IMG/VR virus record: IMGVR_UViG_2531839010_000002
Location: 1 to 64,000 of that record
DNA: 64,000 nt
Reading direction: 5' to 3' (one strand)
Origin: a virus
Taxonomy: Duplodnaviria; Caudoviricetes
A program made the position numbers and the translations under genes. The notes under the pieces are model-generated. The model was given only the letters and a program-made list of their open reading frames with translations. It did not search any database and was not told the origin of the DNA. Below are positions 813 through 63,735 of this stretch, one piece after another (position 1 is the stretch's first letter; each line of letters begins with the position of its first letter).

Positions 813-2693
813 ATGGTGCCGTTGAAGGAGCTGACGGCTGAAACAGTATTGTCGGATGATGTGCTGACAGAAGTGTTTGACCAGGAGGACGAGCTGTACA
901 AGTCAAGGCTGCTGCTGTCACTGGAGGACCGGGCCGGAGAGCTGGGGGTGAAAAAGAAGTTCCAGGAACTGGTCAAGGCCTATAAACGTGTGGAGCGGGA
1001 GATGCGGCGCCGGGAACGGGATAAGAAAAACCAGCCCTGCACGCTGGAGCAATGGACCAATTTTGATGGACCCTATGACCGGATGCAGTGTAAAGAGTGG
1101 ATTGCCGGCGAGGGAGGGATATTCCTTCGGAACCCCACCACGGGATACACGGACATCCTGGCCTGCTATCATCCTATCCTGCCCATTGAGCGGCTGAAGA
1201 ACCTGGAGACTGGGGAGGAGCAGATAAAGCTGGCCTACAAACGCAACGGGCGTTGGGACGAAATCATTGTGCCTAAAACCATGGTTACGTCCGCCAATAA
1301 GATAGTAAGCCTGTCTGGTCGTGGGATAGCGGTCACCAGCGAGAATGCAAAATACCTGGTGCGTTACCTGGCTGATGTAGAGAACGCCAACGAGGAGCAT
1401 ATAGCGGTTCAGTATTCCACGTCCAAGCTGGGATGGATCCGCGGTGGGTTCCTGCCCTATGACACGGACATTGTGTTCGATGGGGACGTGCGGTTCCGCC
1501 AGATAGCGGAGAGCATTGGGCCATCCGGAAGCCGTAATAAGTGGTATGAGCATGTGCTGGAGCTGCGCCGGATTGGCCGGCTGGAGGTTAAGTTTATGCT
1601 GGCGGCATCCTTTTCAAGTGTCCTGGTGCAGCTCCTGGGCGGTCTGCCGTACTTTGTGGACCTCTGGGGAGAAACGGAAGGTGGAAAGACAGTGGATCTG
1701 ATGCTGGCTGCGTCTGTCTGGGCGGATCCGGACGAGAGCGCCTATATTAAGGATTATAAGGGGACAGAGGTCGGGCTGGAAGCAATCTGCGACCTGCTGA
1801 ATAACCTGCCCCTCATTCTGGATGATACCAGCAAGAAGAACCGGAAGATAGAGGACAACTTTGAGGGGCTGGTCTATGACCTGTGCTCCGGAAAGGGCAA
1901 AACCCGCTCCAACAAGGAGCTGGGACTGAACCGGGAGAACCACTGGAAGAACTGTATTCTGACCAATGGAGAACGGCCTTTGAGCTCCTATGTGACCCAG
2001 GGTGGCGCTATCAACCGAATACTGGAAATTGAGTGCGGTCAGCGGGTTTTTGACGATCCTGGGGCCACTGCGGAGCTGGTCAAACACAATTATGGCCATG
2101 CCGGCCAGGAGTTTGTGGATGTCGTCAAAGACATTGGGGTTGAGCAGATCCGCGAAATACAGCGGGGCTTCCTGCGCCAGCTGGCAGATGATGAGAAGAT
2201 GCAGAAGCAGAGCCTGTCCCTGTCAATCATCCTGACGGCCGACAAGCTGGCCACGGACTATCTGTTCAAGGACGGGCAGTACATAAGTCTGGAGGAGGCC
2301 AGAGAGGTCCTGGTGGACCGTGATGAGCTGTCCGACAATGAGAGGTGCTACCAGTACGTGCTGGACAAGGTGGCTATGAATCCGGCCAGATTTGACGGTA
2401 AAGTGGAGAACGTGGAAAAGTGGGGCACGATTGAGAATGGATATGCCATCATCTATGCCACGGCCTTTACGGCTTTGTGCAAGGAAGGCGGGTTTTCGCG
2501 TACATCTTTCCTGTCCTGGGCGAACCGGAAGGGCATTATCCAGGTGGAAGGGAGCGGGAAACGGATGGACAAGGTGAAAAGCTTCAATGGGAATAAGATA
2601 CGGTGCATTTTTCTCAAGTTAAATGACAACACGGACAGGGATGGATTTGTGAAAATAGAGGATGACGGCCAGGAACGGCTGCCGTTCAACTGA
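813..2693 (+). CDS. DUF927-family phage replication helicase/ATPase
   Basis: 626 aa; Walker A-like GETEGGKT, Walker B LILDD, LTNGE motif; follows the CHC2 primase gene. Confidence 0.8.
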   Translation: MVPLKELTAETVLSDDVLTEVFDQEDELYKSRLLLSLEDRAGELGVKKKFQELVKAYKRVEREMRRRERDKKNQPCTLEQWTNFDGPYDRMQCKEWIAGEGGIFLRNPTTGYTDILACYHPILPIERLKNLETGEEQIKLAYKRNGRWDEIIVPKTMVTSANKIVSLSGRGIAVTSENAKYLVRYLADVENANEEHIAVQYSTSKLGWIRGGFLPYDTDIVFDGDVRFRQIAESIGPSGSRNKWYEHVLELRRIGRLEVKFMLAASFSSVLVQLLGGLPYFVDLWGETEGGKTVDLMLAASVWADPDESAYIKDYKGTEVGLEAICDLLNNLPLILDDTSKKNRKIEDNFEGLVYDLCSGKGKTRSNKELGLNRENHWKNCILTNGERPLSSYVTQGGAINRILEIECGQRVFDDPGATAELVKHNYGHAGQEFVDVVKDIGVEQIREIQRGFLRQLADDEKMQKQSLSLSIILTADKLATDYLFKDGQYISLEEAREVLVDRDELSDNERCYQYVLDKVAMNPARFDGKVENVEKWGTIENGYAIIYATAFTALCKEGGFSRTSFLSWANRKGIIQVEGSGKRMDKVKSFNGNKIRCIFLKLNDNTDRDGFVKIEDDGQERLPFN

Positions 2694-2706
2694 CAGGGAC
2701 CATGGA

Positions 2707-2997
2707 GTAACCAAGGCATGGTTACCGCAAAAAGCTAGGTTTCATGCGGGTTTGCGGGTGTTTTTAGGGGTGAGTAACCATGGAACCATCCAAAAACCCT
2801 ATCTATATACAGAAAAAATATTTTACAATCTTTGTATATATTTTAACAAAGATTTAGAAAAAATGCCTCGCGCGTAAGGGAACCTAAAAACATGGTTACT
2901 TTGGTTGCCGTGGCTGACAAAGCCTTATTTTATGAGGGTTTGAGCGGTATCCAATGAGTATAAAAAGATGGTTACTGTAACCATGAAAAGTGGTTAC
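2707..2997. repeat. Cluster of GTAACCA/TGGTTAC heptamers around an AT-rich tract; putative phage replication origin
   Basis: Copies at 2707, 2719, 2774, 2893, 2902 (TGGTTGC), 2969, 2977 and 2991; AT-rich 2790-2860; directly after the primase/helicase genes. Confidence 0.65.
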
Positions 2998-3540
2998 TTG
3001 GAGGAAATCATGACGGACGAAGTAAGAGAATATGCCGAAAGGAAGATATGGGAGAGCGGAATACGAATGGTTCCGGGGCATTATCCAGAATTTGAAAACA
3101 AAGAGCAGGTGGATGACTGGCTGTATATCTCAGAATACATGTTCATAAAATCATTCGGTCAGGAAATGCCAGAGATTATCAGTGTTGATATCCAAGGATA
3201 TAAAGACCTGCTGTGGAAACTTAAAAAGAATGAGGATAATGTTCCACTGGAAATCCTCCGGACAAAACACAGAATGGCATACAACAACCTTCGGCAGGAA
3301 CTAAAGGACATGACGGAAGCAATCATTCATGAAGTAGTGCATAGAAACCTGTATATAAAATGGTCAGACGCAGAGCATAGCCTGCAGAAAATCAACCAGG
3401 CTGTAGCGGATTCGGGGATGTGCGAATTAATCAGCAAAGCCTTGTATCAGGAAAAGTGCTATGGCAGCGTCATAGCAGGCATTATGAAATTAAGAAAACT
3501 TGTTTTAGAAGCCGCAGAAGAGGAGGACAAAGGTGCCTAG
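2968..3540 (+). CDS. Hypothetical phage protein
   Basis: 190-aa ORF in operon orientation. Confidence 0.6.
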   Translation: MVTVTMKSGYLEEIMTDEVREYAERKIWESGIRMVPGHYPEFENKEQVDDWLYISEYMFIKSFGQEMPEIISVDIQGYKDLLWKLKKNEDNVPLEILRTKHRMAYNNLRQELKDMTEAIIHEVVHRNLYIKWSDAEHSLQKINQAVADSGMCELISKALYQEKCYGSVIAGIMKLRKLVLEAAEEEDKGA

Positions 3541-3706
3541 AGGGAAAGAAAAGAAAACAACTGAAAAACCCAAGGTCTATATCTGCAGCCAGTGCGGACA
3601 GGAGATAAGCGGGGATCATGTGTATATCAAGACAAGGCGGCGGACGGAGCTCCACATTCATTTCGGATGCATGCCGGTGGGAAGGAGAGAACAGGATGAA
3701 AGTTAG
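3533..3706 (+). CDS. Small zinc-binding protein (57 aa, CxxC...HxxC), absent from the ORF track
   Basis: AGGAGG SD at 3521, GTG start, MPRGKEKKTTEKPKVYICSQCGQEISGDHVYIKTRRRTELHIHFGC...; overlaps both neighbours. Confidence 0.7.
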   Translation: MPRGKEKKTTEKPKVYICSQCGQEISGDHVYIKTRRRTELHIHFGCMPVGRREQDES

Positions 3707-4244
3707 GATATCAATGCCAGGAGCATATATGGTGATGGACATGGAGGAGGGCCAGGCGCGGACGGCGTTCCACAAATTGGCAGAATCACTGTGGCTGATT
3801 GGAAGCAGGGGACAGAAGCTGCAGGAAGGCGTGGCTGTGGCACCGGTTCAGGAATCGACAGAAACAGTCTATCCAGGTCAGGAAAGACAGGAGGCTGAGA
3901 CGGTGGTGGAAGCAGCAGAGATTCCGGAAAAGGAAGGCGGAGAACCGGCGCCTAACATCATCTCCGCAGGGTATGGCGGGTATCTGTACATGAAATGCCC
4001 TGCCTGTGGAAAGACCAGGGGATTCTGTGCCAAGACACGGCTGAATCATTACCGGTGTGAATGCGGGGCCGTGACAAGGATGGAGCGTATGGTTCCGCTG
4101 TACATGAAATGTGAATGCGGCAGGCAGGCCAGGTATCTGACCAACATGACAGAGACTGAATTTGACGTGGACTGCTATGACTGCGGGGCGCCGGTGGCTG
4201 TTGCGTGGAATGAGAAGAAGTGGATATATGAGACGATGAAGTAG
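3696..4244 (+). CDS. Cys-rich zinc-ribbon phage protein
   Basis: CPACG, CECG x2, CYDCG motifs; ATG at 3696 after GGAGA. Confidence 0.75.
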   Translation: MKVRISMPGAYMVMDMEEGQARTAFHKLAESLWLIGSRGQKLQEGVAVAPVQESTETVYPGQERQEAETVVEAAEIPEKEGGEPAPNIISAGYGGYLYMKCPACGKTRGFCAKTRLNHYRCECGAVTRMERMVPLYMKCECGRQARYLTNMTETEFDVDCYDCGAPVAVAWNEKKWIYETMK

Positions 4245-8063: not shown

Positions 8064-8633
8064 TTGACGAAGAAACAGAAGCGATTTTGTGAGGAATACT
8101 TGATTGGCCTGAATGCCACCAGGGCTTACAAGGTTGCGTATCCGAGCTGCAAGAAGGATGAGGCTGCGGCGGTCAACGGTAGTAAGCTGCTAAGAAATAC
8201 TAAGGTTGCGGAATATATCCAGGAGCGCATGAAGGACCGGGAAAAGCGTACTGAGATTACCCAAGATTGGGTGCTGGAGGAGCTGCGGAAGATTGCCAGT
8301 GCAAACGGCACCGATTTTGCACATGTTGTGCGGGAGCCGGTTATCCGGAACAACTCTTATGTGGTGGATCCAGATACCGGTCAGATGCAGACAAGGGATG
8401 TGGTTCGAATAATCCCGACTGAAGAACTGCCAGAGGAGAAGCGGGCGGCTATCTCCGCAATCAAAGAAACTAAGTTTGGGATAAACGTGGAAACCTATGA
8501 CAGGGTAAGAGCCCTGGAGCTCCTGGGGCGCCATCTGGGGATGTTTAAGGATAAGGTGGAGCTGTCCGGCGGCTTGGATACCGAAAAGACCAAGCTTGAC
8601 GACCTGCTCCAGCAGATGCGTGGTGGTGGGTAA
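8064..8633 (+). CDS. terS: Terminase small subunit
   Basis: TTG start after AAGGTGA; KQKRFCEEYLIGLNATRAY...KVRALELLGRHLGMF motifs. Confidence 0.93.
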   Translation: MTKKQKRFCEEYLIGLNATRAYKVAYPSCKKDEAAAVNGSKLLRNTKVAEYIQERMKDREKRTEITQDWVLEELRKIASANGTDFAHVVREPVIRNNSYVVDPDTGQMQTRDVVRIIPTEELPEEKRAAISAIKETKFGINVETYDRVRALELLGRHLGMFKDKVELSGGLDTEKTKLDDLLQQMRGGG

Positions 8634-49552: not shown

Positions 49553-52500
49553 ATGGCAGAGAATGTATTTGAAGCGGTCAAGCAGTCGGTCAGCACCAGA
49601 GAAGCGGCAGCGTTTTATGGGATCGAGGTCAAACGAAATGGTATGGCCTGCTGTCCCTTTCACGATGATAAGAACCCCAGCATGAAGGTAGACCAGCGGT
49701 TCCACTGCTTTGGTTGCGGTGCAGATGGGGATGTGATCGACTTTACCGCAAAGCTCTTTAACCTCTCCCCAAAAGAAGCGGCGGAGAAACTGGCACAGGA
49801 CTTTGGCCTGATCTATGACAGTCAGGCCCCGCCCCGCAGGAGATATGTCCGGCAAAAAACCGAGGCACAGAAGTTTCGGGAGGATCGACAGCGCTGTTAT
49901 CGCGTACTGTCCGATTACTACTATCTGCTGAAAAAATGGGAAGCCGACCGTTCTCCCAGGACACCGGAGGAAGAACCGCACCCCCGTTTTGTGGAAGCAA
50001 TCCAGAAGAAAGCCTATGTAGAGTACCTGCTGGACCTTTTTCTTTATGAAAGTGAAGAAGAACAAAAGGCATGGATTGCAGAACACACAGCAGAAATCAC
50101 ACACTTGGAAAGGAGATTGAAAATCATGGCTGAGAACAAACCCACCAACCGAGAACGGCTAAGGGAAATCACAGATGGCATCGAGCAGGGCATCAAAGAA
50201 CTGTTTGAGAGTGAAAAGTATATGCGCTATCTGTCCGTCATGTCCCGATTTCACCGCTATTCGGTAAACAACACCATGCTCATCTATATGCAGAAGCCGG
50301 ATGCCACTTTGGTAGCCGGATACAATAAGTGGAAAGACCAGTTTGAGCGTCATGTAAAAAAGGGCGAGCATGGCATTACCATCATCGCTCCCACACCGTA
50401 TAAGAAGAAAATCGAGGAGCAGAAGCTGGACCCAGATACCAAGGCTCCGATTCTGGATAAAGACGGAAAGATCGTTACAGAGGAAAAAGAAATCGAGATC
50501 CCCATGTTTCGTCCGGTCAAGGTCTTTGATGTGAGCCAGACCGACGGGAAACCTTTGCCGGAGCTTGCATCATCCCTTTCCGGCAATGTGCCAAATTATG
50601 AGGCATTCATGGAGGCCCTGCGCCGCAGCGCACCGGTGCCGATTACTTTTGAAGCAATGGCTGCTGATACGGACGGCTATTTTTCTGCTGATCATCAGAA
50701 AATTGCCATTCGTCAGGGCATGAGTGAGGTTCAGACGGTTTCAGCCACAGTACACGAGATTGCCCACAGCAAGCTCCACAATCAGAAAAAGATCCAGATT
50801 ACCAATGACGAGCAATATCAGGAGATCGAGCTGTTTGATAAACTTGGTCTGTTCTCCAACGGACGGATTGCTCGCGATAATCTGCCAGAGGGCGTTTATT
50901 GCTATGACCTGCGCGGTTCTGACTACGATCCTGGAGATCCGGTCTGTGTGGAAGAACGAGTGGTTGTAAACCATGCAGGCTCCGTTCTGCTGACAGAGCC
51001 GTTGGAACTGACGGAAGATGGACGCTTGATGCTGACCGAGGAAAAAGGGCTGAATTTTACCGGTGGCTTTTCTACCCTCTCCCAGTTTTTGCAGAAACAG
51101 AGGAAAGATCGTCACACGGAAGAAGTGGAGGCTGAAAGCATCTCCTATGCGGTCTGCAAGTATTTTGGCATCGAGACTGGAGAAAACAGCTTTGGCTATA
51201 TTGCCAGTTGGAGTCAAGGCAAGGAGCTGAAAGAACTGAGAGCCAGTTTGGAGACCATCAACAAAACCTCCGGCACTTTGATCTCCGACATTGAGCGCCA
51301 CTATAAGGAAATCTGCAAAGAGCGCGGAATCGACCCTCATGCAAAGGCAGAGCCGGAAACCGCCCCGATAGAGCAGCCAACTAGCAATCTGACTTACTAT
51401 GTAGCAGAGTGCATGGAATTTCCAAACCTCGGAGAATACCACGATAACTTGTCTTTGGAGGAAGCAATCCGCATTTATCAGGAGATTCCGGCAGAACGAA
51501 TGAACGGGATCAAGGGCATTGGTTTTGAGCTGAAAGACGGAAGCGACTATGAAGGACCTTTTCCGATTTTGACCGGCCAGACCATTGACCTGGACACCAT
51601 CCAGGCAATCGACTATTACCGTGATAATCCTCTGGTGCAAAAAGCGGTAAAGGAACTGGCTGCGGCAATGCCGGAAATGGAAGTGCTGGGGGCGGACGCC
51701 AATCAGCAGGAGGCTTTGTTTCTGATCGACAATGCCACCTATCTTCATATCCAGTCCTGTGACAGCGGCTGGGACTATACCCTTTACGATGCCGCATCCA
51801 TGAAAGAGCTGGATGGTGGTCAGCTGGATATGCCGGAGATTTCCCGCATGAAGGCAGTTCTCCAGATTTGTGATGACAACGATTTGGGCAGAGACTCGGT
51901 AAAATACGCACCGTTGTCCATGATTGAGACCTTGCAGGAAGCTGCCTACCAGCAGATGCAGGCAGAGGTCAGTCAGATGGCTGCTTCTTCCCAGCTGCCG
52001 GAAGCACAGGAGCAGGCACTGGATGAATACCCCATGCCGGATGAGCAGGTCTCCACACCAGATATGCAGGAATACGGCTACTCCTATGATGGGATGTTCC
52101 CTGTTACCAGAGAACGGGCGCTGGAACTGGATGCCGCCGGTTTGACCGTTTATGTGCTGCATGAGGACAATACGGAGAGCATGGTGTTTGACCCGCAGGA
52201 AATCATGGATCATGGCGGTCTTTTTGGCGTGGACCGTGAGGAATGGGAGAAAAGCCCTCAGTTCCACGAAAAGGTCATGGAGCGTCAGGAACATCAGCAG
52301 GAACGCGAACAGGCATTTCTCTCCCAGAACAGAGATTGCTTTGCAATCTATCAGGTAAGCCGTGACGATCCGCAGAATGTGCGCTTTATGAATCTGGATT
52401 GGTTAAAGTCCCATGACATTTCCATAGACCGCAGCAATTATGACCTCATTTACACAGCTCCGCTGAGGGAGTCTGGCACGGTACCGGAGCAGCTGGAAAA

Positions 52501-52921
52501 ACTATATGAGCAGTTTAATCTGCAAAAGCCGGCGGATTTTCACAGTCCTTCTATGAGTGTCAGTGACATCGTTGCGATCAAGCAGGACGGTAAGGTATCC
52601 TGTCATTACTGTGACAGTGTTGGTTTTACCCAGATCCCCGGATTCCTGTCGGAAAATCCGTTGAAAAATGCGGAGATGGCCGTGGAGGACGATTACGGCA
52701 TGATCGACGGTATCATCAACAATGGCGCAAAAGAGCCTACGGTGGCAGAGCTGGAACAGCAGGCCCGCAACGGTCAGCCCATTTCCCTCATGGATTTGGC
52801 TACCGCTGCCCATCGGGAGGAACGGGAAAAGAAAAAGTCCGTCATGGAGCAGCTGAAAAGCCAGCCCAAGGCAGAACACAAAAAGACAGCGCCAAAAAAG
52901 AGTGCGGAAAGGGAGATTTGA
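49553..52921 (+). CDS. Multidomain CHC2 Zn finger + ArdC-like ssDNA-binding/zincin + YodL-like protein
   Basis: CCPFHDDKNPSM; FHRYSVNNTMLIYMQKPDATLVAGY; HEIAH; HSPSMSVSDIV...YCDSVGF. Confidence 0.85.
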   Translation: MAENVFEAVKQSVSTREAAAFYGIEVKRNGMACCPFHDDKNPSMKVDQRFHCFGCGADGDVIDFTAKLFNLSPKEAAEKLAQDFGLIYDSQAPPRRRYVRQKTEAQKFREDRQRCYRVLSDYYYLLKKWEADRSPRTPEEEPHPRFVEAIQKKAYVEYLLDLFLYESEEEQKAWIAEHTAEITHLERRLKIMAENKPTNRERLREITDGIEQGIKELFESEKYMRYLSVMSRFHRYSVNNTMLIYMQKPDATLVAGYNKWKDQFERHVKKGEHGITIIAPTPYKKKIEEQKLDPDTKAPILDKDGKIVTEEKEIEIPMFRPVKVFDVSQTDGKPLPELASSLSGNVPNYEAFMEALRRSAPVPITFEAMAADTDGYFSADHQKIAIRQGMSEVQTVSATVHEIAHSKLHNQKKIQITNDEQYQEIELFDKLGLFSNGRIARDNLPEGVYCYDLRGSDYDPGDPVCVEERVVVNHAGSVLLTEPLELTEDGRLMLTEEKGLNFTGGFSTLSQFLQKQRKDRHTEEVEAESISYAVCKYFGIETGENSFGYIASWSQGKELKELRASLETINKTSGTLISDIERHYKEICKERGIDPHAKAEPETAPIEQPTSNLTYYVAECMEFPNLGEYHDNLSLEEAIRIYQEIPAERMNGIKGIGFELKDGSDYEGPFPILTGQTIDLDTIQAIDYYRDNPLVQKAVKELAAAMPEMEVLGADANQQEALFLIDNATYLHIQSCDSGWDYTLYDAASMKELDGGQLDMPEISRMKAVLQICDDNDLGRDSVKYAPLSMIETLQEAAYQQMQAEVSQMAASSQLPEAQEQALDEYPMPDEQVSTPDMQEYGYSYDGMFPVTRERALELDAAGLTVYVLHEDNTESMVFDPQEIMDHGGLFGVDREEWEKSPQFHEKVMERQEHQQEREQAFLSQNRDCFAIYQVSRDDPQNVRFMNLDWLKSHDISIDRSNYDLIYTAPLRESGTVPEQLEKLYEQFNLQKPADFHSPSMSVSDIVAIKQDGKVSCHYCDSVGFTQIPGFLSENPLKNAEMAVEDDYGMIDGIINNGAKEPTVAELEQQARNGQPISLMDLATAAHREEREKKKSVMEQLKSQPKAEHKKTAPKKSAEREI

Positions 52922-52922
52922 T

Positions 52923-53138
52923 ATGGGAAACTTTACTTTTGAGGAAATGAACCTGATGTGCATTTACAATACCGGCAGCCGCACCGGACTGATCGACAGC
53001 CTACGTGAGATGCGCGGCGAGCTGGCCCCGGAGGAAACCGAGCTGCGGGAGTTGACAGACAGCGCACTGGGCAAGCTCCAGGCCATGAGTGATGCCGAGT
53101 TTGCCGAGCTGGAGTTGTATCCGGATTTTGACCAGTAA
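52923..53138 (+). CDS. Transposon-transfer-assisting family protein
   Basis: FTFEEMNLMCIYNTGSRTGLI...KLQAMSDAEF. Confidence 0.8.
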   Translation: MGNFTFEEMNLMCIYNTGSRTGLIDSLREMRGELAPEETELRELTDSALGKLQAMSDAEFAELELYPDFDQ

Positions 53139-53216
53139 ACACTATAATCGCAGGGATGGGGTGGCAATATGCCACCCCACCTTTTTACCCCAAAACTGAA
53201 AGGAGGACAGAACACT

Positions 53217-56200
53217 ATGCCAACCAAAGCTGAACTATATGCACAGATGGCGGAGAAAGTGGCAACGCAGCTCACGGGAAGCTGGCAGGAATGGGCAGGG
53301 TTTCTCACCACTGCTTCCCGCCTTTACAAGTACCCGTTCCATGAGCAGTTGATGATCTACGCCCAGCGTCCGGACGCTACCGCCTGTGCAGAGTACGATT
53401 TGTGGAATGAAAAGATGGGGCGGTATGTAAGGCGCGGCTCCAAGGGGATCGCTCTGGTGGACGATTCCGGGGACAGACCCCGCCTGCGCTATGTTTTTGA
53501 TATTTCCGACACCGGAACCCGTGAACATTCCCGCACTCCCTGGCTGTGGCAGCTGGAGGAGCGCCATCTGGATTCCGTGCAGGTCATGCTGGAGCGCACC
53601 TATGATGTTTCCGGTGATGACCTTGCCGGACAGCTCACTGAGGTAGCCGGAAAACTGGCTGAGGAATACTGGACGGAGCATCAGCAGGACTTCTTCTATA
53701 TCGTTGACGGTTCCTTTTTGGAGGAATATGATGAGTTTAACATCGGAGTACAGTTCAAGGCAGCAGCCACCGTCAGTATCACTTATGCTTTGATGTCCCG
53801 CTGTGGACTGGAACCGGAACGCTACTTCGACCACGAAGATTTCATGGCGATCTTTGATTTCAATACTCCGGCAACCATCGGAGCGTTGGGAACAGCGGTC
53901 AGCCAGATCAACCAGCAGGTGCTGCGGCAGATCGGCGTTACCGTCCGAAATGCAGAGCGCGAAGCCAACCAAGAAAGGAGCAAACAAGATGAACAATCCC
54001 ATGACCTATATCCAGAACGGAGACTATCTGATTCCCGACCTGAAGCTGAGCCAGCAGCCGGAGAAACCCCTGGGCAAGTACGGCAGGATGAGGAAAACCT
54101 ACCTGAAGGAACACCGTCCCATCCTCTACAACCAGATGTTGCTGAGCGAGAAGCTGTACCCGCACCTTCTGGAGATCGACGAGACCGCCCAGAGCAGACT
54201 GGAGCAGATGATGCCCCAGCTGGCGAAGGAAGCGGGAGCCACCGAGGAACTGAAAGCCAGCGATCCCATGAAGTGGGTGGGGCTGATGAACACCTGCAAA
54301 GCTCAGGCCGAGGAAATCCTGATGACGGAGCTTATCAACAGCTGACTCTAAACCTGTTCCTCTCCGAAGCGGAACAGATCCAATCCATAGATGAAGCAGA
54401 GAATGTAGCGCATACATCCTCTGCTTTTTCTTTTGCCCAAAATGACATCGACCATGTGCTGCGTTTGGGCGGTAATACAGACCGTCAAAGGGAGCGTGTG
54501 GTTGCAGCCTTTGAAAAGCAGAAAACCACCGCTGAGATTGCTGAGATACTGAAAACGCTGTACCACGGCGGTAACGGCCTTGGCAGTGTGAGCGCATGGT
54601 ATGCCGAGGATGGTATCCATCTTTCCCACGGGAAGTCTGTCCGTTATGACAGGTCTGCCCAGGTCATTTCCTGGGAGAGCGCCGCAGAGCGTATCGGGGA
54701 GCTTTTGGAAAGTGGTCAGTTTGCCTCCAATGTGGAGCTTGCAGAAGCGGCAGGCTATGAACGCTCCCTCCTTTCAGAAAAGCTCTGGCATCTGTACCAC
54801 GATTTCAGCGAGGAAGCCAGAGAAGCCGGATATTTGTCCTGCCTGTCAGAGATCAAAGGCAATGGTTTCCCGGAGGAGACCCGCCGCCTGACGGAGCAGC
54901 TGAGTGACCCGGCTTTCCGCCAGACACTCAAGGAAGAATACGCTGCCTTCTGGACTGCCTATCAGCAGGACCGTGACCTGTTGCGTTTTCGCTATCATAG
55001 ACCGAGGGAGATCTGGGAGAACCTGAAGGACCTTGACCTGCCCCGCAGGACCTTTTCTTCAGAGCTTTCCCAAGTGCCAACCGTCCAGCACTTCATTACC
55101 GAGGATGAGATCGACGCCGCTATGACCGGCGGCAGCAGTTTCGCCGGAGGAAAAGGCCGTATCTATGCGTTCTTCATGGCAAACCATACGGATAAGGAGA
55201 AAGTGAGATTCCTCAAAGACGAGTATGGCATTGGCGGACGCTCTCATGCCCTGTCCGGCGCAACACACAGCGGCGAAGATCACGATGGGAAAGGACTGCA
55301 CTATAAAAAGCAGGACTGCCCGGATGTTCACTTGAACTGGGAAAAGGTTGCCAAGCGCATTACCTCTCTTGTCCAGAAAGGCCGCTATCTTACCGAACAG
55401 GAACAGGCGCAGTATGACAAAATCCAGGCTGAAAAGGAATTGGCAGAAGAAGATGCCATCCAAGCCCAGCAGCCGGAGGTGGAGAAAGAAACGCCAAAGC
55501 CTACCCTTCGGGAGCAGTTTGAGCAGTATAAGACTGTGGTGACTGCCGCCATTTCCGAGGATACCGCATACCGCAATGCCTGCGGGCATTCTGACCGTGA
55601 AAATGCTGTCATCGAGGGCAATGCCGCTGTGCGCCGTGCGGTCCTTGGTTCTAAGGATATGGAGCTGATCCGCCTCTATTCGGATGTGCCGGAGTTCCGA
55701 CAGCGACTGCACCGGGAAGTGATCGACGAAACCTATCCAAAGCTCCATGAACTTCTGCGCCCTCTTTCTCAGGAAGATATTGATACTGCCATTTGTGCAT
55801 GGAACGGCAATATCGAGAGTAAACACGCTGTCGTCCGTTATATGAAAGACCATGCAAGAGAGAAAGATACCGCTGCATGGCTGGCTCAGGAATACGGCGG
55901 CAGTAACAGCAACAGCCTGTTCGTTGTCCGTGCCGGAAGCCCGGAGGAAACGCAGCTGCCCTGGCCGAAGGTACAGCGCAGGCTTGCCCAGCTTATTCAG
56001 GAGGATCGGTTCTATACCGAAGAAGAACAGGACCGTTTTGACGACATCGACCCAATCGCCATCCGGGAAGCTCTGGAGGAAAGAGGGATCGTCAACGGCC
56101 AGGTGGCAGACCCGGAAAAACTGGACAATGACCCGTTTATCCAGCAGGTGGTGTCGGATGTAGAGCAGATCGCAGCTGCCGAGACAGAACAGACTTCCGA

Positions 56201-59200
56201 GGTTTCCATTTCCGATGAGGAATATGATGCCGTTCGCCGCCCGACTCCGCAAAGAACCTCCTATGATCCTGCCGCCCCGGTTTATGCCGTGGGCGATACC
56301 GTGTATATCGAGGATGACGCCTATCAGATCACCGAGCTACGGGATGACACCGTGCAGCTTCTGCCTACCGGCATGGTATATCCCATCTATCGGGCAGAGC
56401 GCAAAGAACAGTTCGAGCAGCTGCTTCGGGCAGACCGCCGCAATGCTTACTATACCGAGTTTCTTCCCATTGACCCGGACAAGGCAGATCAAGACCTGCG
56501 GGATGTATTGGCCCATGGACTGATGGATGAAGCGGATAAACAGCAGCTTTCCACGCTACTGCAATCTGGCAGGAGCAACAGTGAGATCGCCTACTGGCTG
56601 AGCAGAGCCTACCCTCATGAGATTGAGACCCTGAATCTGGAGACCGGCGATATTGCCGATTACCGTACCACGGCACAGGGCATGGAGCTGGAAGTCCTGG
56701 ACGCAGAGGAAAAGCGTCTGGCTGTGCTGTATTTCCGCTGGGATGAGGTTGCGCCTTTGCTGCGCGGGATGTATGCCCGTCAGCAGGACGGCTTTGGACA
56801 GGAACAGCCCCAACCGGCTACCGAATCCCCGACCTTCCATTCCGAGACCATGGCCGTCTATCCGGGCGATAAGAACCATCTACCTTATGATGTGGTGGTG
56901 GAACGGTTGCATATTGAGGAGCCGGAGCCGCCAGCCCCTGTAACAGAGCCGGAGAAAACCTTTGAGGAAGTGCTGGATGAACACCCGGTTTCCATTCAGG
57001 TCAACGGCCAGTGGCAGACCTTCCCCAATGCCAAAGCTGCCGAGGAAGCCTCCTATGAGGAATACAAGGCTAACCTGCGCCGCAATGCACAGAACTTCCG
57101 CATTACCGATGAGCATTTGGGCGAAGGCGGTCCAAAAACCAAGTTCCAGGCAAATGTTAATGCCATTCGTTTGCTGAAAGAGCTGGAAGCTGCCGGACAG
57201 CAGGCAAGCCCCGAACAACAGGAGATTCTTTCCCGTTATGTGGGCTGGGGCGGTCTTTCAGATGCCTTTGACTCGGAAAAACTGGCATGGGTTTCCGAGT
57301 ATGCCCAGCTGAAAGAGTTGCTGACCCCGGAGGAATATGCCGCCGCCAGAAGCTCTACCCTCAATGCCCATTACACCAGCCCTACGGTTATCCAGGCAAT
57401 CTATGAAGCGGTGGGGCGCATGGGCTTTGAGACCGGAAATATTTTGGAGCCATCTATGGGTGTGGGCAACTTCTTCGGTATGCTGCCGGAGGAAATGAGA
57501 AACAGCCGTCTATACGGTGTGGAGCTGGACCCGATTTCCGGGCGCATCGCAAAGCAGCTCTATCCCAAGGCGGACATCACAGTAGGCGGCTTTGAGACCA
57601 CTGACAGGCGGGACTTCTTTGACCTTGCCATCGGCAATGTGCCTTTCGGTCAGTATCAGGTCAACGACAAAACTTACAACAAGTTAAACTTTAGTATTCA
57701 CAACTACTTTTTCGCCAAAGCACTGGATCAGGTGCGCCCCGGCGGTGTGGTAGCTTTTGTGACCTCCCGCTATACCATGGACGCCAAGGATTCCACCGTG
57801 CGCCGCTATCTTGCCCAGCGTGCCGAGCTGCTGGGAGCGATCCGTCTGCCTAATGACGCGTTCAAAAAGAATGCCGGTGCCGAGGTTGTATCGGACATCA
57901 TCTTTCTCCAAAAGCGGGACCGTCCGCTGGACATTGCACCAGAGTGGACGCAGACCGGACAAACGGAGGATGGGTTTGCCATCAACCGGTATTTTATCGA
58001 CCACCCGGAAATGGTGCTGGGCAGACAGGAGCCGGTAAGCACTGCTCATGGTATGGATTACACCGTGAACCCTATCGAGGGACTGGAGCTTTCCGACCAG
58101 CTGCATGATGCGGTGAAGTACATTCATGGCACTTATCAGGAGGCAGAGCTGCCGGAGCTGGGCGAAGGCGAAGCCATTGACACCTCCATTCCTGCCGACC
58201 CAAATGTGAAGAACTATTCCTATGCCATTGTAGACGGGCAGGTGTACTATCGGGAAAACAGCCGCATGGTGCGCCCTGACCTCAACGCCACCGCCGAAGC
58301 CCGCGTGAAAGGTCTTGTGGGACTGCGTGATTGTGTGCAGGAACTGATCGACCTTCAGATGGATGCAGCGGTTCCAGACAGCACCATTACCCAAAAACAG
58401 GCGGAACTGAACCGGCTCTATGACAGCTTTTCTGCCAAATACGGTCTCATCAATGACCGTGCAAACCGCCTGGCCTATGCAGACGATTCTTCCTATTACC
58501 TGCTCTGTGCGCTGGAAGTTATTGACGAGGACGGAAAGCTGGAGCGCAAGGCGGATATGTTCACCAAACGAACCATCAAGCCCCATCAGGCAGTGGCTGC
58601 TGTGGATACGGCAAGCGAAGCACTGGCGGTGTCCATCTCGGAAAAAGCCTGCGTAGATATGGGCTATATGAGCCAGCTTAGCGGAAAAACAAAAGAAGAA
58701 CTGGAGGGAGAACTGCAAGGTGTGATCTTCCGTGTACCGGGACAGCTGGAACAGGACGGATCGCCCCATTATGTGACTGCTGATGAATACCTTTCCGGCA
58801 ATGTACGCCGCAAACTGCGTCAGGCACAGAGGGCGGCACAGCAGGACCCGGTTTATGCAGTCAATGTGGAAGCCCTTACCGCCGCCCAGCCCAAAGACCT
58901 GAATGCGTCGGAGATCGAGGTGCGTCTGGGCGCTACCTGGATTGACAAGGAGTACATCCAGCAGTTTATGTATGAGACCTTCAACACCCCGGTTTATCTC
59001 CAGCGCAGCATTGAGGTCAACTATTCCTCCTTTACTGCTGAATGGCAGATCAAGGGGAAATCTTCTGTATCCTACAACGATGTGGCAGCCTACACCACCT
59101 ACGGAACCAGCCGTGCCAATGCCTACAAGATTTTGGAGGACAGCCTGAACCTGCGGGATGTCCGTATCTATGACACCATAGAGGACGCAGACGGAAAAGA

Positions 59201-61094
59201 GCGCCGCGTGCTGAATGCCAAGGAGACCACTCTGGCTGCCCAACAACAGCAGGCTATCCGGGAAGCCTTTAGGGACTGGATCTGGAGAGACCCGGAGCGC
59301 CGCCAGACTTTGGTGCGCCAGTATAACGAAGAAATGAACGCTACCCGTCCCCGCGAGTATGATGGCAGCCATATCACTTTTGGCGGCATGAACCCGGCCA
59401 TTACCCTGCGGGAACACCAAAAAAGCGCTATCGCCCATGTGCTGTATGGCGGAAATACCCTGCTGGCACACGAAGTAGGCGCGGGCAAAACCTTTGAGAT
59501 GGTGGCCGCTGCGATGGAAGCCAAACGCCTGGGCTTGTGCCAGAAATCTCTCTTTGTGGTTCCCAACCACCTGACTGAGCAGTGGGCATCGGAGTTTCTG
59601 CGCCTCTATCCTTCTGCCAACATCTTAGTCACAACCAAAAAGGACTTTGAGACCCATAACCGCAAGAAGTTCTGCGCCCGTATTGCGACCGGTGACTACG
59701 ACGCCATCATCATGGGACACAGTCAGTTTGAGCGTATCCCCATCAGCCGGGAGCGTCAGGAACGGCTTCTCTATGAGCAGATCGACGAGATCACCGAGGG
59801 GATTGCAGAGGTACAGGCCAGCGGCGGCGAGCGTTTTACCGTCAAGCAGCTGGAGCGTACCAGAAAGTCTCTGGAAGCCAGACTGGAAAAGCTGCAAGCC
59901 GAAGGGCGAAAAGACGATGTGGTAACCTTCGAGCAGCTGGGTGTGGACCGTTTGTTTGTGGACGAGGCCCACAACTATAAAAACCTGTTTCTATACACAA
60001 AAATGCGGAATGTGGCTGGTCTGTCCACATCGGACGCGCAGAAATCCTCCGATATGTTTGCCAAGTGCCGCTATATGGATGAGATCACCGGAAACCGTGG
60101 CGTGATTTTTGCCACCGGCACCCCGGTCAGCAACTCCATGACCGAGCTTTACACCATGCAGCGTTATCTTCAGTATGAACGCCTGCAAGAACTGAACATG
60201 ACCCACTTCGACTGCTGGGCTTCCCGATTTGGAGAGACCGTCACAGCATTGGAGCTGGCACCGGAAGGCACCGGCTACCGGGCAAGAACGAGATTCAGCA
60301 AGTTCTTTAATCTGCCGGAGCTGATGAACCTGTTCAAAGAAGTGGCGGACATCAAGACCGCCGACCAACTGAACCTGCCCACCCCGGAGGTGGAATACCA
60401 CAACATCGTGGCGCAGCCTACCGAACATCAGCAGGAAATGGTCAAGGCTCTTTCGGAGCGTGCATCGCTGGTACACAGCGGAACCGTTGACCCGTCTCAG
60501 GACAATATGCTCAAGATTACCTCGGATGGCCGTAAGCTGGGGCTTGACCAGAGGATCGTCAACCAGATGCTGCCGGACGAATCTGGCACAAAGGTCAATC
60601 AGTGTGTGGACAACATCATGCAGATCTGGCGGGACGGCAAAGCTGACAAGCTGACCCAGTTGGTGTTCTGCGACATTTCCACGCCCCAGTCAGCTCTCTC
60701 CAAAAAGGCAGCCAAACAGCTGGACAATCCGCTGCTTCACGGGTTGGAAGAAGCAATCCCACTGGATGAACCGGAGCCTGCCTTTACCATCTATGAGGAC
60801 ATCCGCCAGAAGCTCATCGCCCAGGGGATGCCTGCCGAGCAGATCGCCTTTATCCACGAAGCCAACACAGAGGTACGGAAAAAGGAACTGTTCTCCAAGG
60901 TCCGCACCGGGCAGGTGCGTGTCCTATTAGGAAGCACTGCCAAGATGGGTGCTGGCACCAATGTGCAGGACCGCCTTGTGGCGTTGCATGATTTGGACTG
61001 TCCGTGGCGTCCGGGAGATGTAGGACGGATTTTGCGGACATTCAAAATAAAAAAGAATGTGGAGGTAACAGACAATGGCAAAATCATTATTTGA
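53217..61094 (+). CDS. Giant N6-adenine methyltransferase/SNF2-family helicase (DarB-like), C-terminally truncated by an insertion at ~61020
   Basis: LEPSMGVGNF and IGNVPF MTase motifs; AHEVGAGKT, FVDEAH, ATGTP helicase motifs; sequence diverges right after DCPWRPGD, motif VI missing. Confidence 0.9.
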   Translation: MPTKAELYAQMAEKVATQLTGSWQEWAGFLTTASRLYKYPFHEQLMIYAQRPDATACAEYDLWNEKMGRYVRRGSKGIALVDDSGDRPRLRYVFDISDTGTREHSRTPWLWQLEERHLDSVQVMLERTYDVSGDDLAGQLTEVAGKLAEEYWTEHQQDFFYIVDGSFLEEYDEFNIGVQFKAAATVSITYALMSRCGLEPERYFDHEDFMAIFDFNTPATIGALGTAVSQINQQVLRQIGVTVRNAEREANQERSKQDEQSHDLYPERRLSDSRPEAEPAAGETPGQVRQDEENLPEGTPSHPLQPDVAEREAVPAPSGDRRDRPEQTGADDAPAGEGSGSHRGTESQRSHEVGGADEHLQSSGRGNPDDGAYQQLTLNLFLSEAEQIQSIDEAENVAHTSSAFSFAQNDIDHVLRLGGNTDRQRERVVAAFEKQKTTAEIAEILKTLYHGGNGLGSVSAWYAEDGIHLSHGKSVRYDRSAQVISWESAAERIGELLESGQFASNVELAEAAGYERSLLSEKLWHLYHDFSEEAREAGYLSCLSEIKGNGFPEETRRLTEQLSDPAFRQTLKEEYAAFWTAYQQDRDLLRFRYHRPREIWENLKDLDLPRRTFSSELSQVPTVQHFITEDEIDAAMTGGSSFAGGKGRIYAFFMANHTDKEKVRFLKDEYGIGGRSHALSGATHSGEDHDGKGLHYKKQDCPDVHLNWEKVAKRITSLVQKGRYLTEQEQAQYDKIQAEKELAEEDAIQAQQPEVEKETPKPTLREQFEQYKTVVTAAISEDTAYRNACGHSDRENAVIEGNAAVRRAVLGSKDMELIRLYSDVPEFRQRLHREVIDETYPKLHELLRPLSQEDIDTAICAWNGNIESKHAVVRYMKDHAREKDTAAWLAQEYGGSNSNSLFVVRAGSPEETQLPWPKVQRRLAQLIQEDRFYTEEEQDRFDDIDPIAIREALEERGIVNGQVADPEKLDNDPFIQQVVSDVEQIAAAETEQTSEVSISDEEYDAVRRPTPQRTSYDPAAPVYAVGDTVYIEDDAYQITELRDDTVQLLPTGMVYPIYRAERKEQFEQLLRADRRNAYYTEFLPIDPDKADQDLRDVLAHGLMDEADKQQLSTLLQSGRSNSEIAYWLSRAYPHEIETLNLETGDIADYRTTAQGMELEVLDAEEKRLAVLYFRWDEVAPLLRGMYARQQDGFGQEQPQPATESPTFHSETMAVYPGDKNHLPYDVVVERLHIEEPEPPAPVTEPEKTFEEVLDEHPVSIQVNGQWQTFPNAKAAEEASYEEYKANLRRNAQNFRITDEHLGEGGPKTKFQANVNAIRLLKELEAAGQQASPEQQEILSRYVGWGGLSDAFDSEKLAWVSEYAQLKELLTPEEYAAARSSTLNAHYTSPTVIQAIYEAVGRMGFETGNILEPSMGVGNFFGMLPEEMRNSRLYGVELDPISGRIAKQLYPKADITVGGFETTDRRDFFDLAIGNVPFGQYQVNDKTYNKLNFSIHNYFFAKALDQVRPGGVVAFVTSRYTMDAKDSTVRRYLAQRAELLGAIRLPNDAFKKNAGAEVVSDIIFLQKRDRPLDIAPEWTQTGQTEDGFAINRYFIDHPEMVLGRQEPVSTAHGMDYTVNPIEGLELSDQLHDAVKYIHGTYQEAELPELGEGEAIDTSIPADPNVKNYSYAIVDGQVYYRENSRMVRPDLNATAEARVKGLVGLRDCVQELIDLQMDAAVPDSTITQKQAELNRLYDSFSAKYGLINDRANRLAYADDSSYYLLCALEVIDEDGKLERKADMFTKRTIKPHQAVAAVDTASEALAVSISEKACVDMGYMSQLSGKTKEELEGELQGVIFRVPGQLEQDGSPHYVTADEYLSGNVRRKLRQAQRAAQQDPVYAVNVEALTAAQPKDLNASEIEVRLGATWIDKEYIQQFMYETFNTPVYLQRSIEVNYSSFTAEWQIKGKSSVSYNDVAAYTTYGTSRANAYKILEDSLNLRDVRIYDTIEDADGKERRVLNAKETTLAAQQQQAIREAFRDWIWRDPERRQTLVRQYNEEMNATRPREYDGSHITFGGMNPAITLREHQKSAIAHVLYGGNTLLAHEVGAGKTFEMVAAAMEAKRLGLCQKSLFVVPNHLTEQWASEFLRLYPSANILVTTKKDFETHNRKKFCARIATGDYDAIIMGHSQFERIPISRERQERLLYEQIDEITEGIAEVQASGGERFTVKQLERTRKSLEARLEKLQAEGRKDDVVTFEQLGVDRLFVDEAHNYKNLFLYTKMRNVAGLSTSDAQKSSDMFAKCRYMDEITGNRGVIFATGTPVSNSMTELYTMQRYLQYERLQELNMTHFDCWASRFGETVTALELAPEGTGYRARTRFSKFFNLPELMNLFKEVADIKTADQLNLPTPEVEYHNIVAQPTEHQQEMVKALSERASLVHSGTVDPSQDNMLKITSDGRKLGLDQRIVNQMLPDESGTKVNQCVDNIMQIWRDGKADKLTQLVFCDISTPQSALSKKAAKQLDNPLLHGLEEAIPLDEPEPAFTIYEDIRQKLIAQGMPAEQIAFIHEANTEVRKKELFSKVRTGQVRVLLGSTAKMGAGTNVQDRLVALHDLDCPWRPGDVGRILRTFKIKKNVEVTDNGKIII
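53989..54345 (+). CDS. tnpV: TnpV-family protein nested in the +1 frame of the helicase gene
   Basis: SD GAAAGGAG, ATG 53989; MNNPMTYIQNGDYLIPDL...GKYGRMRKTYLK...EIDETAQSR...GATEELKA...W.GLMN, alignable with TnpV at 61075. Confidence 0.8.
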   Translation: MNNPMTYIQNGDYLIPDLKLSQQPEKPLGKYGRMRKTYLKEHRPILYNQMLLSEKLYPHLLEIDETAQSRLEQMMPQLAKEAGATEELKASDPMKWVGLMNTCKAQAEEILMTELINS

Positions 61095-61449
61095 GGAACT
61101 GGGCGGCAAATACGAAAGGCAAGGCGATTATCTAATTCCATGTATAACTTTACCCGCCGAAGAAGAACAGGCAATAGGTATCTGGGGGCAGCGGCATTTG
61201 GATTATCTGAAGCATCACTGTAAAGTTACATACACCAATCTTCTTACAAGCGGCAGACTTAACGCTTACCTTGCCGACATTGACAGACAGGCACAGGAAC
61301 GCTTTGAAAGGCTCATAGAGGGTATGAAACAGGCACAGGGCATAACGGAACAGCTAAAGGCAGAAAACGCCTTAGAATGGACAGGATGCCTCAATAACAT
61401 AAGGGCTTGTGCGAGGGAGATTGTGGAAAAGGAAATTATTTTTGCATAA
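61075..61449 (+). CDS. tnpV: TnpV protein
   Basis: MAKSLFEELGGKYERQGDYLIPCITLP...IGIWGQRHLDYLK. Confidence 0.93.
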   Translation: MAKSLFEELGGKYERQGDYLIPCITLPAEEEQAIGIWGQRHLDYLKHHCKVTYTNLLTSGRLNAYLADIDRQAQERFERLIEGMKQAQGITEQLKAENALEWTGCLNNIRACAREIVEKEIIFA

Positions 61450-61506
61450 ACAGATGATTAGTGGCAGGGTGAAATCCTGCCGCTTTTTTTGCTTTAGTTT
61501 GTCAGC

Positions 61507-61535
61507 TTGACAAATAAAGGGTTAAGGAATATAAT
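61507..61535 (+). promoter_or_regulatory. tet(O) promoter
   Basis: TTGACA-17 bp-TATAAT. Confidence 0.85.
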
Positions 61536-61744
61536 TAGATTCAGTTTTATACAAGGAGTTAATAAATATGCGGCAAGGTATTCTTAAATAAACTGTCAAT
61601 TTGATAGTGGGAACAAAAAGTAGCAGTCCCGTTTCACTTTTAATATGGGGCTTAGTTTTTTGTACCCAGTTTAAGAATACTTTTATCATGTAATTTTATA
61701 TGCCCGAAAACATATAAGTGTTTTGGGGCTATTGGAGTTATTTG

Positions 61745-61780
61745 CCCAGTGATAGGAGTATTTATCACTGGGTATTTTTA
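61745..61780 (+). promoter_or_regulatory. Attenuator-like hairpin in the tet(O) leader
   Basis: CCCAGTGATA-ggagtatt-TATCACTGGG followed by TATTTTTA. Confidence 0.7.
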
Positions 61781-61815
61781 TGCCCTTTTTTGGGTGTTGA
61801 TAGGAGGAAAATCAC

Positions 61816-63735
61816 ATGAAAATAATTAACTTAGGTATTCTGGCTCACGTTGACGCAGGAAAGACAACATTAACGGAGAGTTTATTGTATACCAGTGGTG
61901 CAATTGCAGAACTAGGGAGCGTAGATAAAGGCACAACAAGGACAGATACAATGAATTTGGAGCGTCAAAGGGGAATCACTATCCAGACAGCAGTGACATC
62001 TTTTCAGTGGGAGGATGTAAAAGTCAACATTATAGATACGCCAGGCCATATGGATTTTTTGGCGGAAGTATACCGTTCTTTATCCGTATTAGACGGAGCA
62101 GTATTATTAGTTTCTGCAAAGGATGGCATACAGGCACAGACCCGTATACTGTTTCATGCATTACAGACAATGAAGATTCCGACAATTTTTTTCATCAATA
62201 AAATTGACCAAGAGGGGATTGATTTGCCAATGGTATATCGGGAAATGAAAGCAAAGCTTTCTTCGGAAATTATAGTGAAGCAAAAGGTTGGGCAGCATCC
62301 CCATATAAATGTAACGGACAATGACGATATGGAACAGTGGGATGCGGTAATTATGGGAAACGATGAACTATTAGAGAAATATATGTCAGGGAAACCGTTT
62401 AAAATGTCAGAACTGGAACAGGAAGAAAACAGGAGATTCCAAAACGGAACGTTATTTCCCGTTTATCACGGAAGCGCTAAAAACAATCTGGGGATTCGGC
62501 AGCTTATAGAAGTGATTGCCAGTAAATTTTATTCATCAACGCCTGAAGGTCAATCTGAACTATGCGGGCAGGTTTTTAAGATTGAATATTCAGAGAAAAG
62601 GCGGCGTTTTGTTTATGTGCGTATATATAGCGGAACATTGCATTTGAGGGATGTCATTAGAATATCTGAAAAAGAGAAAATAAAAATCACAGAGATGTGT
62701 GTTCCGACAAACGGTGAATTATATCCATCCGATACAGCCTGCTCTGGTGATATTGTAATTTTACCAAATGATGTTTTGCAGCTAAACAGTATTTTGGGGA
62801 ACGAAATGCTGTTGCCGCAGAGAAAATTTATTGAAAATCCTCTCCCTATGCTCCAAACAACGATTGCAGTAAAGAAATCTGAACAGCGGGAAATATTGCT
62901 TGGGGCACTTACAGAAATTTCAGATGGCGACCCTCTTTTAAAATATTATGTGGATACTACAACGCATGAGATTATACTTTCTTTTTTGGGGAATGTGCAG
63001 ATGGAAGTCATTTGTGCCATCCTTGAGGAAAAATATCATGTGGAGGCAGAAATAAAAGAGCCTACTGTTATATATATGGAAAGACCGCTTAGAAAAGCAG
63101 AATATACCATCCACATAGAAGTCCCGCCAAATCCTTTCTGGGCTTCTGTCGGGTTGTCCATAGAGCCGCTCCCTATTGGAAGCGGAGTGCAGTATGAAAG
63201 CAGAGTTTCACTTGGATATTTAAACCAATCGTTCCAAAATGCGGTTATGGAGGGGGTTCTCTATGGCTGCGAGCAGGGGCTGTATGGATGGAAAGTGACA
63301 GACTGTAAAATCTGTTTTGAATATGGATTGTATTATAGTCCTGTAAGTACCCCCGCAGACTTTCGGCTGCTTTCCCCTATCGTATTGGAGCAGGCTTTAA
63401 AAAAAGCAGGGACAGAACTATTAGAGCCATATCTCCACTTTGAAATTTATGCACCGCAGGAATATCTCTCACGGGCGTATCATGATGCCCCAAGGTATTG
63501 TGCAGATATTGTAAGTACTCAGATAAAGAATGACGAGGTCATTCTGAAAGGAGAAATCCCTGCCAGATGTATTCAAGAATACAGGAACGATTTAACTTAT
63601 TTCACAAATGGGCAGGGAGTCTGCTTGACGGAGTTAAAAGGATACCAGCCAGCTATTGGTAAATTTATTTGCCAACCCCGCCGCCCGAATAGCCGTATAG
63701 ATAAGGTTCGGCATATGTTCCACAAGTTAGCTTAA
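61816..63735 (+). CDS. tet(O): Tetracycline ribosomal protection protein Tet(O)
   Basis: 639 aa; [20 protein letters not shown]; N- and C-termini match the Tet(O) sequence as recalled. Confidence 0.95.

Follow-up and report, generated by a model that had tools for sequence, protein, structure and literature searches.

Sequence evidence for an old tnpV gene nested out of frame in a giant polyvalent gene of a Tn5252-related conjugative element

In Bacillus subtilis, comS lies out of frame in srfAB; it has 46 codons, is restricted to its lineage and represents the younger of the two frames. The Rz/Rz1 spanin genes of lambda and the overlaps of phiX174 belong to small phage genomes under size pressure, and in these cases the overlapping products share one pathway. 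Here, we describe a nested pair in positions 1 to 64,000 of the IMG/VR record IMGVR_UViG_2531839010_000002 (the whole 64,000-nucleotide stretch is hereafter called the window), where a complete tnpV gene lies inside a giant gene that encodes a polyvalent methylase-helicase protein. The region is a Tn5252/ICESp2905-type conjugative element, although IMG/VR files the record as a provirus. We consider it very probable that the two genes form an ancient same-strand nested pair on this Tn5252-related element, with one mRNA read in two frames.

Overlapping genes have been reviewed (PMC8227390 and PMC6195259). The TnpV proteins of Tn4451-type elements have been postulated to aid excision on account of their similarity to lambda Xis (PMC3158075). 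Polyvalent proteins were surveyed by Iyer et al. in 2017, in a paper with no occurrence of TnpV or of overlapping frames (PMC5512222), and our full-text literature searches returned no paper tying TnpV to overprinting, nested genes or polyvalent proteins.

The tnpV open reading frame (ORF) at 53989-54345 falls entirely within the giant gene (53217-61094), on the same strand and in another frame (Table 1). It matches the Pfam family TnpV (PF14198) over model positions 1-111 of 111 (E 2.5e-44; 150.2 bits against a cut-off of 27), a match that a six-frame search of the whole record also recovers, and it is 37% identical over 110 aa (E 3e-28) to the TnpV encoded at 61075 by a standalone gene further downstream. 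Across 81 sequences, the Shine-Dalgarno (SD) sequence GAAAGGAG and the ATG of tnpV are invariant and their spacing is fixed, and the adjacent bases vary. The Arg codon AGG that the giant frame reads within this SD makes up 7% of the Arg codons in the remainder of the giant gene, and in most distant loci an SD-like purine-rich sequence precedes the tnpV ATG. A preliminary description of this DNA had reported a complete 118-aa TnpV with its own SD in the +1 frame of the giant gene, its likeness to the TnpV at 61075, an overlap open in both frames, a third-position G/C bias favoring the tnpV frame and a disordered, E/P/R/G/D-rich linker in the helicase frame. Its coordinates agree with ours, and each of these observations is borne out by the figures given here and below.

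The start signals bear on a reading in which a programmed +1 ribosomal frameshift would yield an ArdC-N-TnpV fusion, so that tnpV would be the C-terminal domain of a longer protein and not an independent gene. Such a fusion would account for database proteins in which the head of the giant protein runs in frame into TnpV (P0246, P0264 and P0279), and for one with the reverse arrangement (P0233). However, these four proteins are frame-shifted chimeras whose change of frame falls at varying positions, as indels or assembly errors would give, and the SD and ATG of tnpV do not vary. A stop in the tnpV frame lies 3-195 nt 5' of the ATG, and within 30 nt (3-30) in many distant lineages; since the tnpV frame closes upstream of its own ATG, a frameshift fusion with the whole of TnpV is not conserved. 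No conserved slippery site was noticed, and no formal search for one was made. We find the frameshift reading scarcely credible, and tnpV is treated below as an independently initiated gene.

Within the overlap, neither the tnpV frame nor the giant frame contains a stop, compared to 15 in the third frame. The G/C content at third codon positions (GC3) is 0.83 in the tnpV frame versus 0.32 in the giant frame; outside the overlap, the giant gene has 0.63. In addition, 81% of the residues in the giant-frame peptide are E, P, R, G, D, S, Q, A or K. When tnpV was resampled synonymously with the codon usage of the giant gene, the giant frame acquired 6.1 stops on average, and the probability of none was 0.0004. 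When a 119-codon window was slid along the remainder of the giant gene, the equivalent frame was never stop-free (0 of 213; mean 5.0, minimum 2), and the same held for 119-codon windows in the neighboring 1122-codon gene. For a stop to arise in the giant frame, a T-ending tnpV codon must be followed by one that begins with AA, AG or GA. At the 40 tnpV contexts that precede such a codon, no T-ending codon is used, though 28 could carry one synonymously and T takes up 22% of third positions (T3) in the remaining codons of the giant gene. Six stops interrupt the -1 frame of the standalone tnpV at 61075, and the equivalent frame of 20 further standalone copies, all from other genomes, contains 2-12, with a mean of 6.25.

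A back-translated scan of species genomes yielded 80 close loci with TnpV 83-99% identical, drawn from a wide range of gut Clostridia genera and a small number of others. Every one of the 80 retains an intact tnpV of 118 codons with an ATG start, and the giant frame is open throughout the overlap. Among the 59 distinct sequences, the variable sites at tnpV codon positions 1, 2 and 3 number 45, 28 and 77. On a tree of these sequences, we counted 271 tnpV-synonymous and 176 nonsynonymous changes, corresponding to a rough omega (ratio of nonsynonymous to synonymous rates) of 0.16, and around 12% of tnpV-synonymous opportunities create a giant-frame stop, which gives approximately 37 expected and 0 seen; both figures come from parsimony counts uncorrected for multiple hits or recombination. 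By these measures, purifying selection acts on the TnpV protein. The giant-frame linker, on the other hand, reads as 58 different peptides from the 59 distinct DNA sequences. Since the linker peptide differs in nearly every sequence, the host frame is constrained solely to avoid stops, with its amino-acid sequence otherwise free.

To reach more distant relatives, we ran the first 644 residues of the giant protein through HMMER against all 1.84 billion representatives and obtained 5,423 relatives; a word-index search had recovered none below 96% identity. Database relatives of the giant gene number more than 8,000. The linker is kept, at 102-378 residues, in 77 of the 78 representative clusters (50% identity) that have both flanking domains, and its apparent motifs (ERS, GQVR, GDRxD and ES.R.D..G..DE) arise when the tnpV SD and the codons of TnpV motifs are read from one base further 5'. 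Eight loci were taken from the encoding contigs, and seven of them keep the linker. All seven carry a +1-frame tnpV with an ATG, their giant proteins are 34-40% identical across the N-terminal 644 aa, and each has 0 giant-frame stops versus 5.5-10.3 expected (P <= 0.002 each). At seven more distant genomic loci, with head domains 27-36% and TnpV 25-45% identical, and at four plasmid loci, from Clostridium botulinum, Clostridium perfringens, Cohnella and Monoglobus, tnpV occupies the +1 position too. Across these distant genomic and plasmid loci, the giant frame is open over tnpV, locus L089 being the only distant one with a giant-frame stop within the overlap; in Monoglobus, the giant frame is closed within the head domain. 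TnpV identity across the approximately 20 distant lineages of integrative and conjugative elements (ICEs) and plasmids is 25-57%, and nested tnpV persists in lineages where the head domain is just 25-30% identical.

We also sampled 150 Clostridia species, among which TnpV was found in 61 genomes and the head domain gave 37 matches in 27 genomes; in 34 of those 37 matches, a TnpV match follows directly downstream on the same strand. The genome of Faecalibacterium prausnitzii UT1, the source of locus L029, has 15 TnpV matches in 3.1 Mb, which points to many copies of ICEs or of integrative and mobilizable elements (IMEs). Taken over all loci, strains of Enterocloster, Hungatella, Roseburia and Faecalibacterium are indicated as carriers of this ICE family. 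Chance or an assembly artifact as the cause of the double open frame is ruled out by more than 100 independent loci. The preliminary description had proposed to examine homologs for stop depletion and selection, and to abandon dual coding if stops or indels were common in the tnpV frame. Both depletion and selection were found, tnpV is intact in all 80 close loci, and the host frame is open in these and has an overlap stop in 1 of about 20 distant loci; the close loci and the intact distant loci alike keep a +1 tnpV under an open host frame. Together, these comparisons indicate that 53989-54345 is a genuine, old gene within a gene, and that the nested layout is kept across ICE and plasmid lineages of the Bacillota.

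Structure prediction gave a corresponding picture of the two products. The AlphaFold2 (AF2) model of TnpV, built from a 23-sequence alignment, has a predicted local distance difference test score (pLDDT) of 87 and shows a beta-hairpin followed by a helical bundle. Compared with the PDB, this model had a best Z of about 5 (VIA-align wide) or Foldseek E values above 4, with no excisionase listed, and the TnpV sequence profile had no match in the PDB. In the AF2 model of the first 544 residues of the giant protein, a confident head (pLDDT approximately 85-95) and a confident post-linker domain are separated by 146 residues with a pLDDT of 25-37 and no secondary structure, corresponding to the overlap plus about 28 residues. 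The giant-frame reading of the tnpV DNA is thus predicted to be a disordered linker. The top Foldseek match of the head domain is ArdC of R388 (6sna), which is weak (E 0.22).

We propose that ribosomes starting at 53217 would make the giant protein and cross the tnpV DNA in frame 0, where they would produce a disordered tether of approximately 120-145 residues that links the methylase/helicase body to the head. A second set of ribosomes would initiate independently at the strong internal SD/ATG (53973-53991) and make the folded 118-aa TnpV in the +1 frame. The giant gene itself may have arisen, or been re-joined, by read-through of an intervening tnpV cistron, with stops purged afterwards.

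We found no conserved RNA structure masking the tnpV start (z-score -0.69). An internal promoter for tnpV was considered and rejected: a single sigma-70-like site (53704-53732) was seen, which is not above chance expectation, and its -10 element changes from TATGAT to TACGAT in about one third of close relatives. RNA-library contigs extend over the entire region with no indels, and three runs have contigs covering 53217-55200, though this is weak evidence since DNA carry-over is possible. One mouse-gut metatranscriptome contig of 434 nt (53909-54342) contains only the tnpV SD and ORF. It may be a short transcript or a mere assembly break at the most conserved stretch, and we do not take it as evidence for a separate transcript.

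Since constraint, fold and codon pattern all mark the tnpV frame, we infer that tnpV is the older reading and that the giant-frame linker is an overprint. The preliminary description had likewise proposed that tnpV is ancestral and was absorbed as a linker. The constraint in the tnpV frame and the disordered, free host frame fit this proposal. In an unrooted TnpV tree of 45 sequences, nested and standalone labels cluster (4 changes versus 15.4 in shuffles). Nested copies sit on the deepest TnpV branches; the standalone ones fall for the most part into a single clade, to which the tet(O)-element copy of the window belongs. A single split between nested and standalone copies gave an approximately unbiased test P value (p-AU) of 0.19 and is not rejected.

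The tet(O) element invites a different account, in which the nested tnpV would be the relic of an earlier TnpV-bearing mobilizable element inserted in the helicase gene, or a regulator of such elements. The window carries the standalone tnpV and then a 639-aa ribosomal protection gene of the TetM/W/O/S family (61075-63735; 1310 bits), and a tnpV upstream of tet(O) has been described in Roseburia intestinalis (PMC11913394), with matching order here. That such an element sits in the same gene as the nested copy, that standalone and nested TnpVs are homologous, and that locus L088 has a standalone tnpV right behind its giant gene would all be in keeping with a relic. Yet the nested copy is older than the diversification of these elements, the TnpV of the tet(O) element belongs to a different clade, and the element is inserted in the helicase gene approximately 7 kb downstream of the nested tnpV; an internal site of the SNF2 helicase gene in Tn5252-related ICEs is known as a serine-recombinase target at which a tet(O) fragment integrates (PMC5704250). 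Next to the nested copy, we found no recombinase remnant or element ends, and host domains flank tnpV directly. The preliminary description had suggested a regulatory link to the tet(O)-type element or a domesticated relic. Our findings do not support either, and the nested tnpV on the C. botulinum, C. perfringens and Cohnella plasmids, which were not chosen for such elements, speaks further against a recent relic. We therefore give the relic or regulator account very little credence, while an ancient insertion is possible as the ultimate origin of the nested gene. In L088, the second standalone tnpV (8373-8562) begins about 110 nt past the giant-gene stop and a nested copy is present too; no tet(O) element was found in the part of this locus that was fetched.

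A more speculative view, which we hold to be unlikely, is that the nested position is the original home of the TnpV family, from which the standalone Tn4451- and tet(O)-type copies escaped. TnpV would then work with the ArdC-N header, for example by loading or escorting it with the transferred strand, and mobilizable elements, by bringing a tnpV of their own, would make use of the transfer machinery that the host ICE provides. The deepest position of the nested copies, the shallower standalone clade and the 34 of 37 head-tnpV adjacencies are compatible with this view.

Several observations weigh against the nested pair as we describe it. Locus L089 has a single giant-frame stop inside the overlap with tnpV intact, L085/P0165 and P0177 have lost both tnpV and the long linker, and the giant gene of L085 is split into 618 aa and more than 1685 aa. 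Nested copies on the deepest branches of an unrooted tree, with a single split that is not rejected, would fit either direction of evolution, and the omega and expected-stop figures carry the uncorrected counts stated above. That both products are made is something we infer from sequence. Finally, the host-frame peptide is not conserved, so that the evidence shows that ribosomes must not stop, not that a tether matters. This last point opens the way to a rival in which the host frame is kept open merely for uninterrupted translation, either to avoid polarity or to feed a downstream cistron that lacks its own start, with head and body unjoined or cleaved. The unconstrained linker sequence (58 peptides from 59 DNA sequences) would be as expected under this rival, as would the split variants L089 and L085, and Iyer et al. 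considered that ArdC-N domains are possibly released by proteolysis (PMC5512222). It predicts the same sequence signature as a tether, so sequence cannot separate the two, but split forms are rare, with one each among the roughly 20 distant loci and the 78 clusters. We judge uninterrupted translation alone to be quite improbable, and a nested pair with a tethering linker remains our preferred reading.

In L089, the stop (reverse strand, about 1155-1157 in reversed coordinates) splits a 292-codon head frame from a body of more than 1048 codons. Another variant, L091, has a standalone tnpV (515-874) 1 kb upstream of its giant gene (1837-4001), with 12 stops in the -1 frame of tnpV and a linker of only about 60 residues; the variants without nested tnpV (L085/P0165, P0177 and L091) are also without the long linker. 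Since the L091 TnpV groups with nested copies on the tree, this arrangement may represent an un-nesting event.

The mechanical ORF of the giant gene is 53169-61094, with 2641 codons. Since homologs align from residue 17 (MPTK) of this ORF, the likely start is the ATG at 53217. The giant protein matches the Pfam Eco57I methylase (27.3 bits, cut-off 25.3), SNF2-rel_dom (47.7 bits) and ResIII (37.3 bits) models, and the head domain scores 17.6 bits against ArdcN, below the cut-off of 22.6. The giant protein combines several unrelated effector or DNA-handling domains and is encoded on a conjugative element, as is typical of a polyvalent protein, and its intact relatives are about 2,930 aa long. 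The upstream gene (49553-52921) encodes a second polyvalent protein of 1122 aa with a CHC2 zinc finger and ArdcN, LPD28, LPD16, YodL and DUF4316 domains; its ArdC-N domain (50213-50410) is a weak paralog of the giant-gene head, with 29% identity. NCBIfam had no match for TnpV, the head domain, the post-linker domain or TTRAP; a megablast search against annotated plasmids and phages had no match; and none of seven other ORFs (78-103 aa) in alternative frames of the giant gene matched a Pfam family.

Table 1. Positions of the nested pair and neighboring features in the window
Feature	Coordinates	Strand	Remarks
TTRAP gene	52902-53138		78 aa; PF14203, E 2.5e-26
Terminator-like hairpin and T-run	53157-53179	+	Separates the TTRAP gene from the giant gene; contains the mechanical ORF start (53169)
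SD of the giant gene, GAAAGGAGG	53198-53206	+	10 nt 5' of ATG 53217; SD core shared with tnpV
Giant polyvalent gene	53217-61094	+	ArdC-N-like head, linker, Eco57I-type methylase, SNF2/ResIII helicase
N-terminal head domain	53217-53960	+	ArdC-N-like; below-threshold Pfam match
SD of tnpV, GAAAGGAG	53973-53980	+	8 nt 5' of ATG; giant frame reads Glu-Arg-Ser (E-R-S)
Same DNA in giant frame	53988-54344	+	119 stop-free codons; E/G/P/D/S/R/A-rich linker
Nested tnpV	53989-54345	+	ATG 53989, 118 codons, TGA 54343-54345; offset +1 relative to the giant gene
Predicted disordered stretch of giant protein	53991-54428	+	Model residues 259-404; AF2 pLDDT 25-37
First folded post-linker domain	54429-54848	+	Helices and beta-sheet; starts soon after the conserved LF(L/P)SE.EQI motif
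Standalone tnpV of the tet(O) element	61075-61449	+	Full PF14198 match; GC3 0.44, T3 0.23; internal control

Long out-of-frame overlaps with strong evolutionary support are rare in bacteria outside phages, and the tnpV case involves 118 codons and is both old and extremely common. It points to read-through in the alternative frame of a third gene as a route by which two genes can fuse. The nesting also has consequences for annotation. The four RefSeq plasmid records (L101-L104) list either TnpV (Cohnella and Monoglobus) or a giant SNF2/helicase-related protein (C. botulinum and C. perfringens), never both, in PLSDB gene tables that omit pseudogenes. Because of this, tnpV counts, pseudogene calls and domain architectures for ICEs that carry antibiotic resistance may be unreliable. 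In addition, the nesting assigns the uncharacterized TnpV family a constant genetic partner, and the function of the family thereby becomes open to experiment.

Among the systems introduced above, comS/srfAB shares the layout: there, too, a short gene with its own start is embedded, out of frame and on the same strand, in a giant multidomain gene. The present locus differs in that tnpV has 118 codons, belongs to a widespread Pfam family and is constrained and apparently older, with the host frame as the unconstrained overprint. This is the opposite of the usual pattern, since here the embedded gene is old and folded and the enclosing frame is young and disordered. With Rz/Rz1 and phiX174, the pair shares an embedded +1-frame gene, two frames that are probably both functional and one product enriched in disorder, but it lies on a large ICE or plasmid and its products have no known functional tie. 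The TnpV proteins of Tn4451 and Tn4453 belong to the same family, with a full-length PF14198 match. However, they are encoded by standalone cistrons beside TnpX-type serine recombinases and have 2-12 stops in the -1 frame, whereas the nested copies have none and, unlike them, are always preceded by an ArdC-N-like head domain. Finally, the enclosing protein resembles the described polyvalent proteins (PMC5512222) in its putative ArdC-N-like header, methylase and SNF2 helicase, and in its neighbors, TTRAP and an LPD/YodL/DUF4316 protein.

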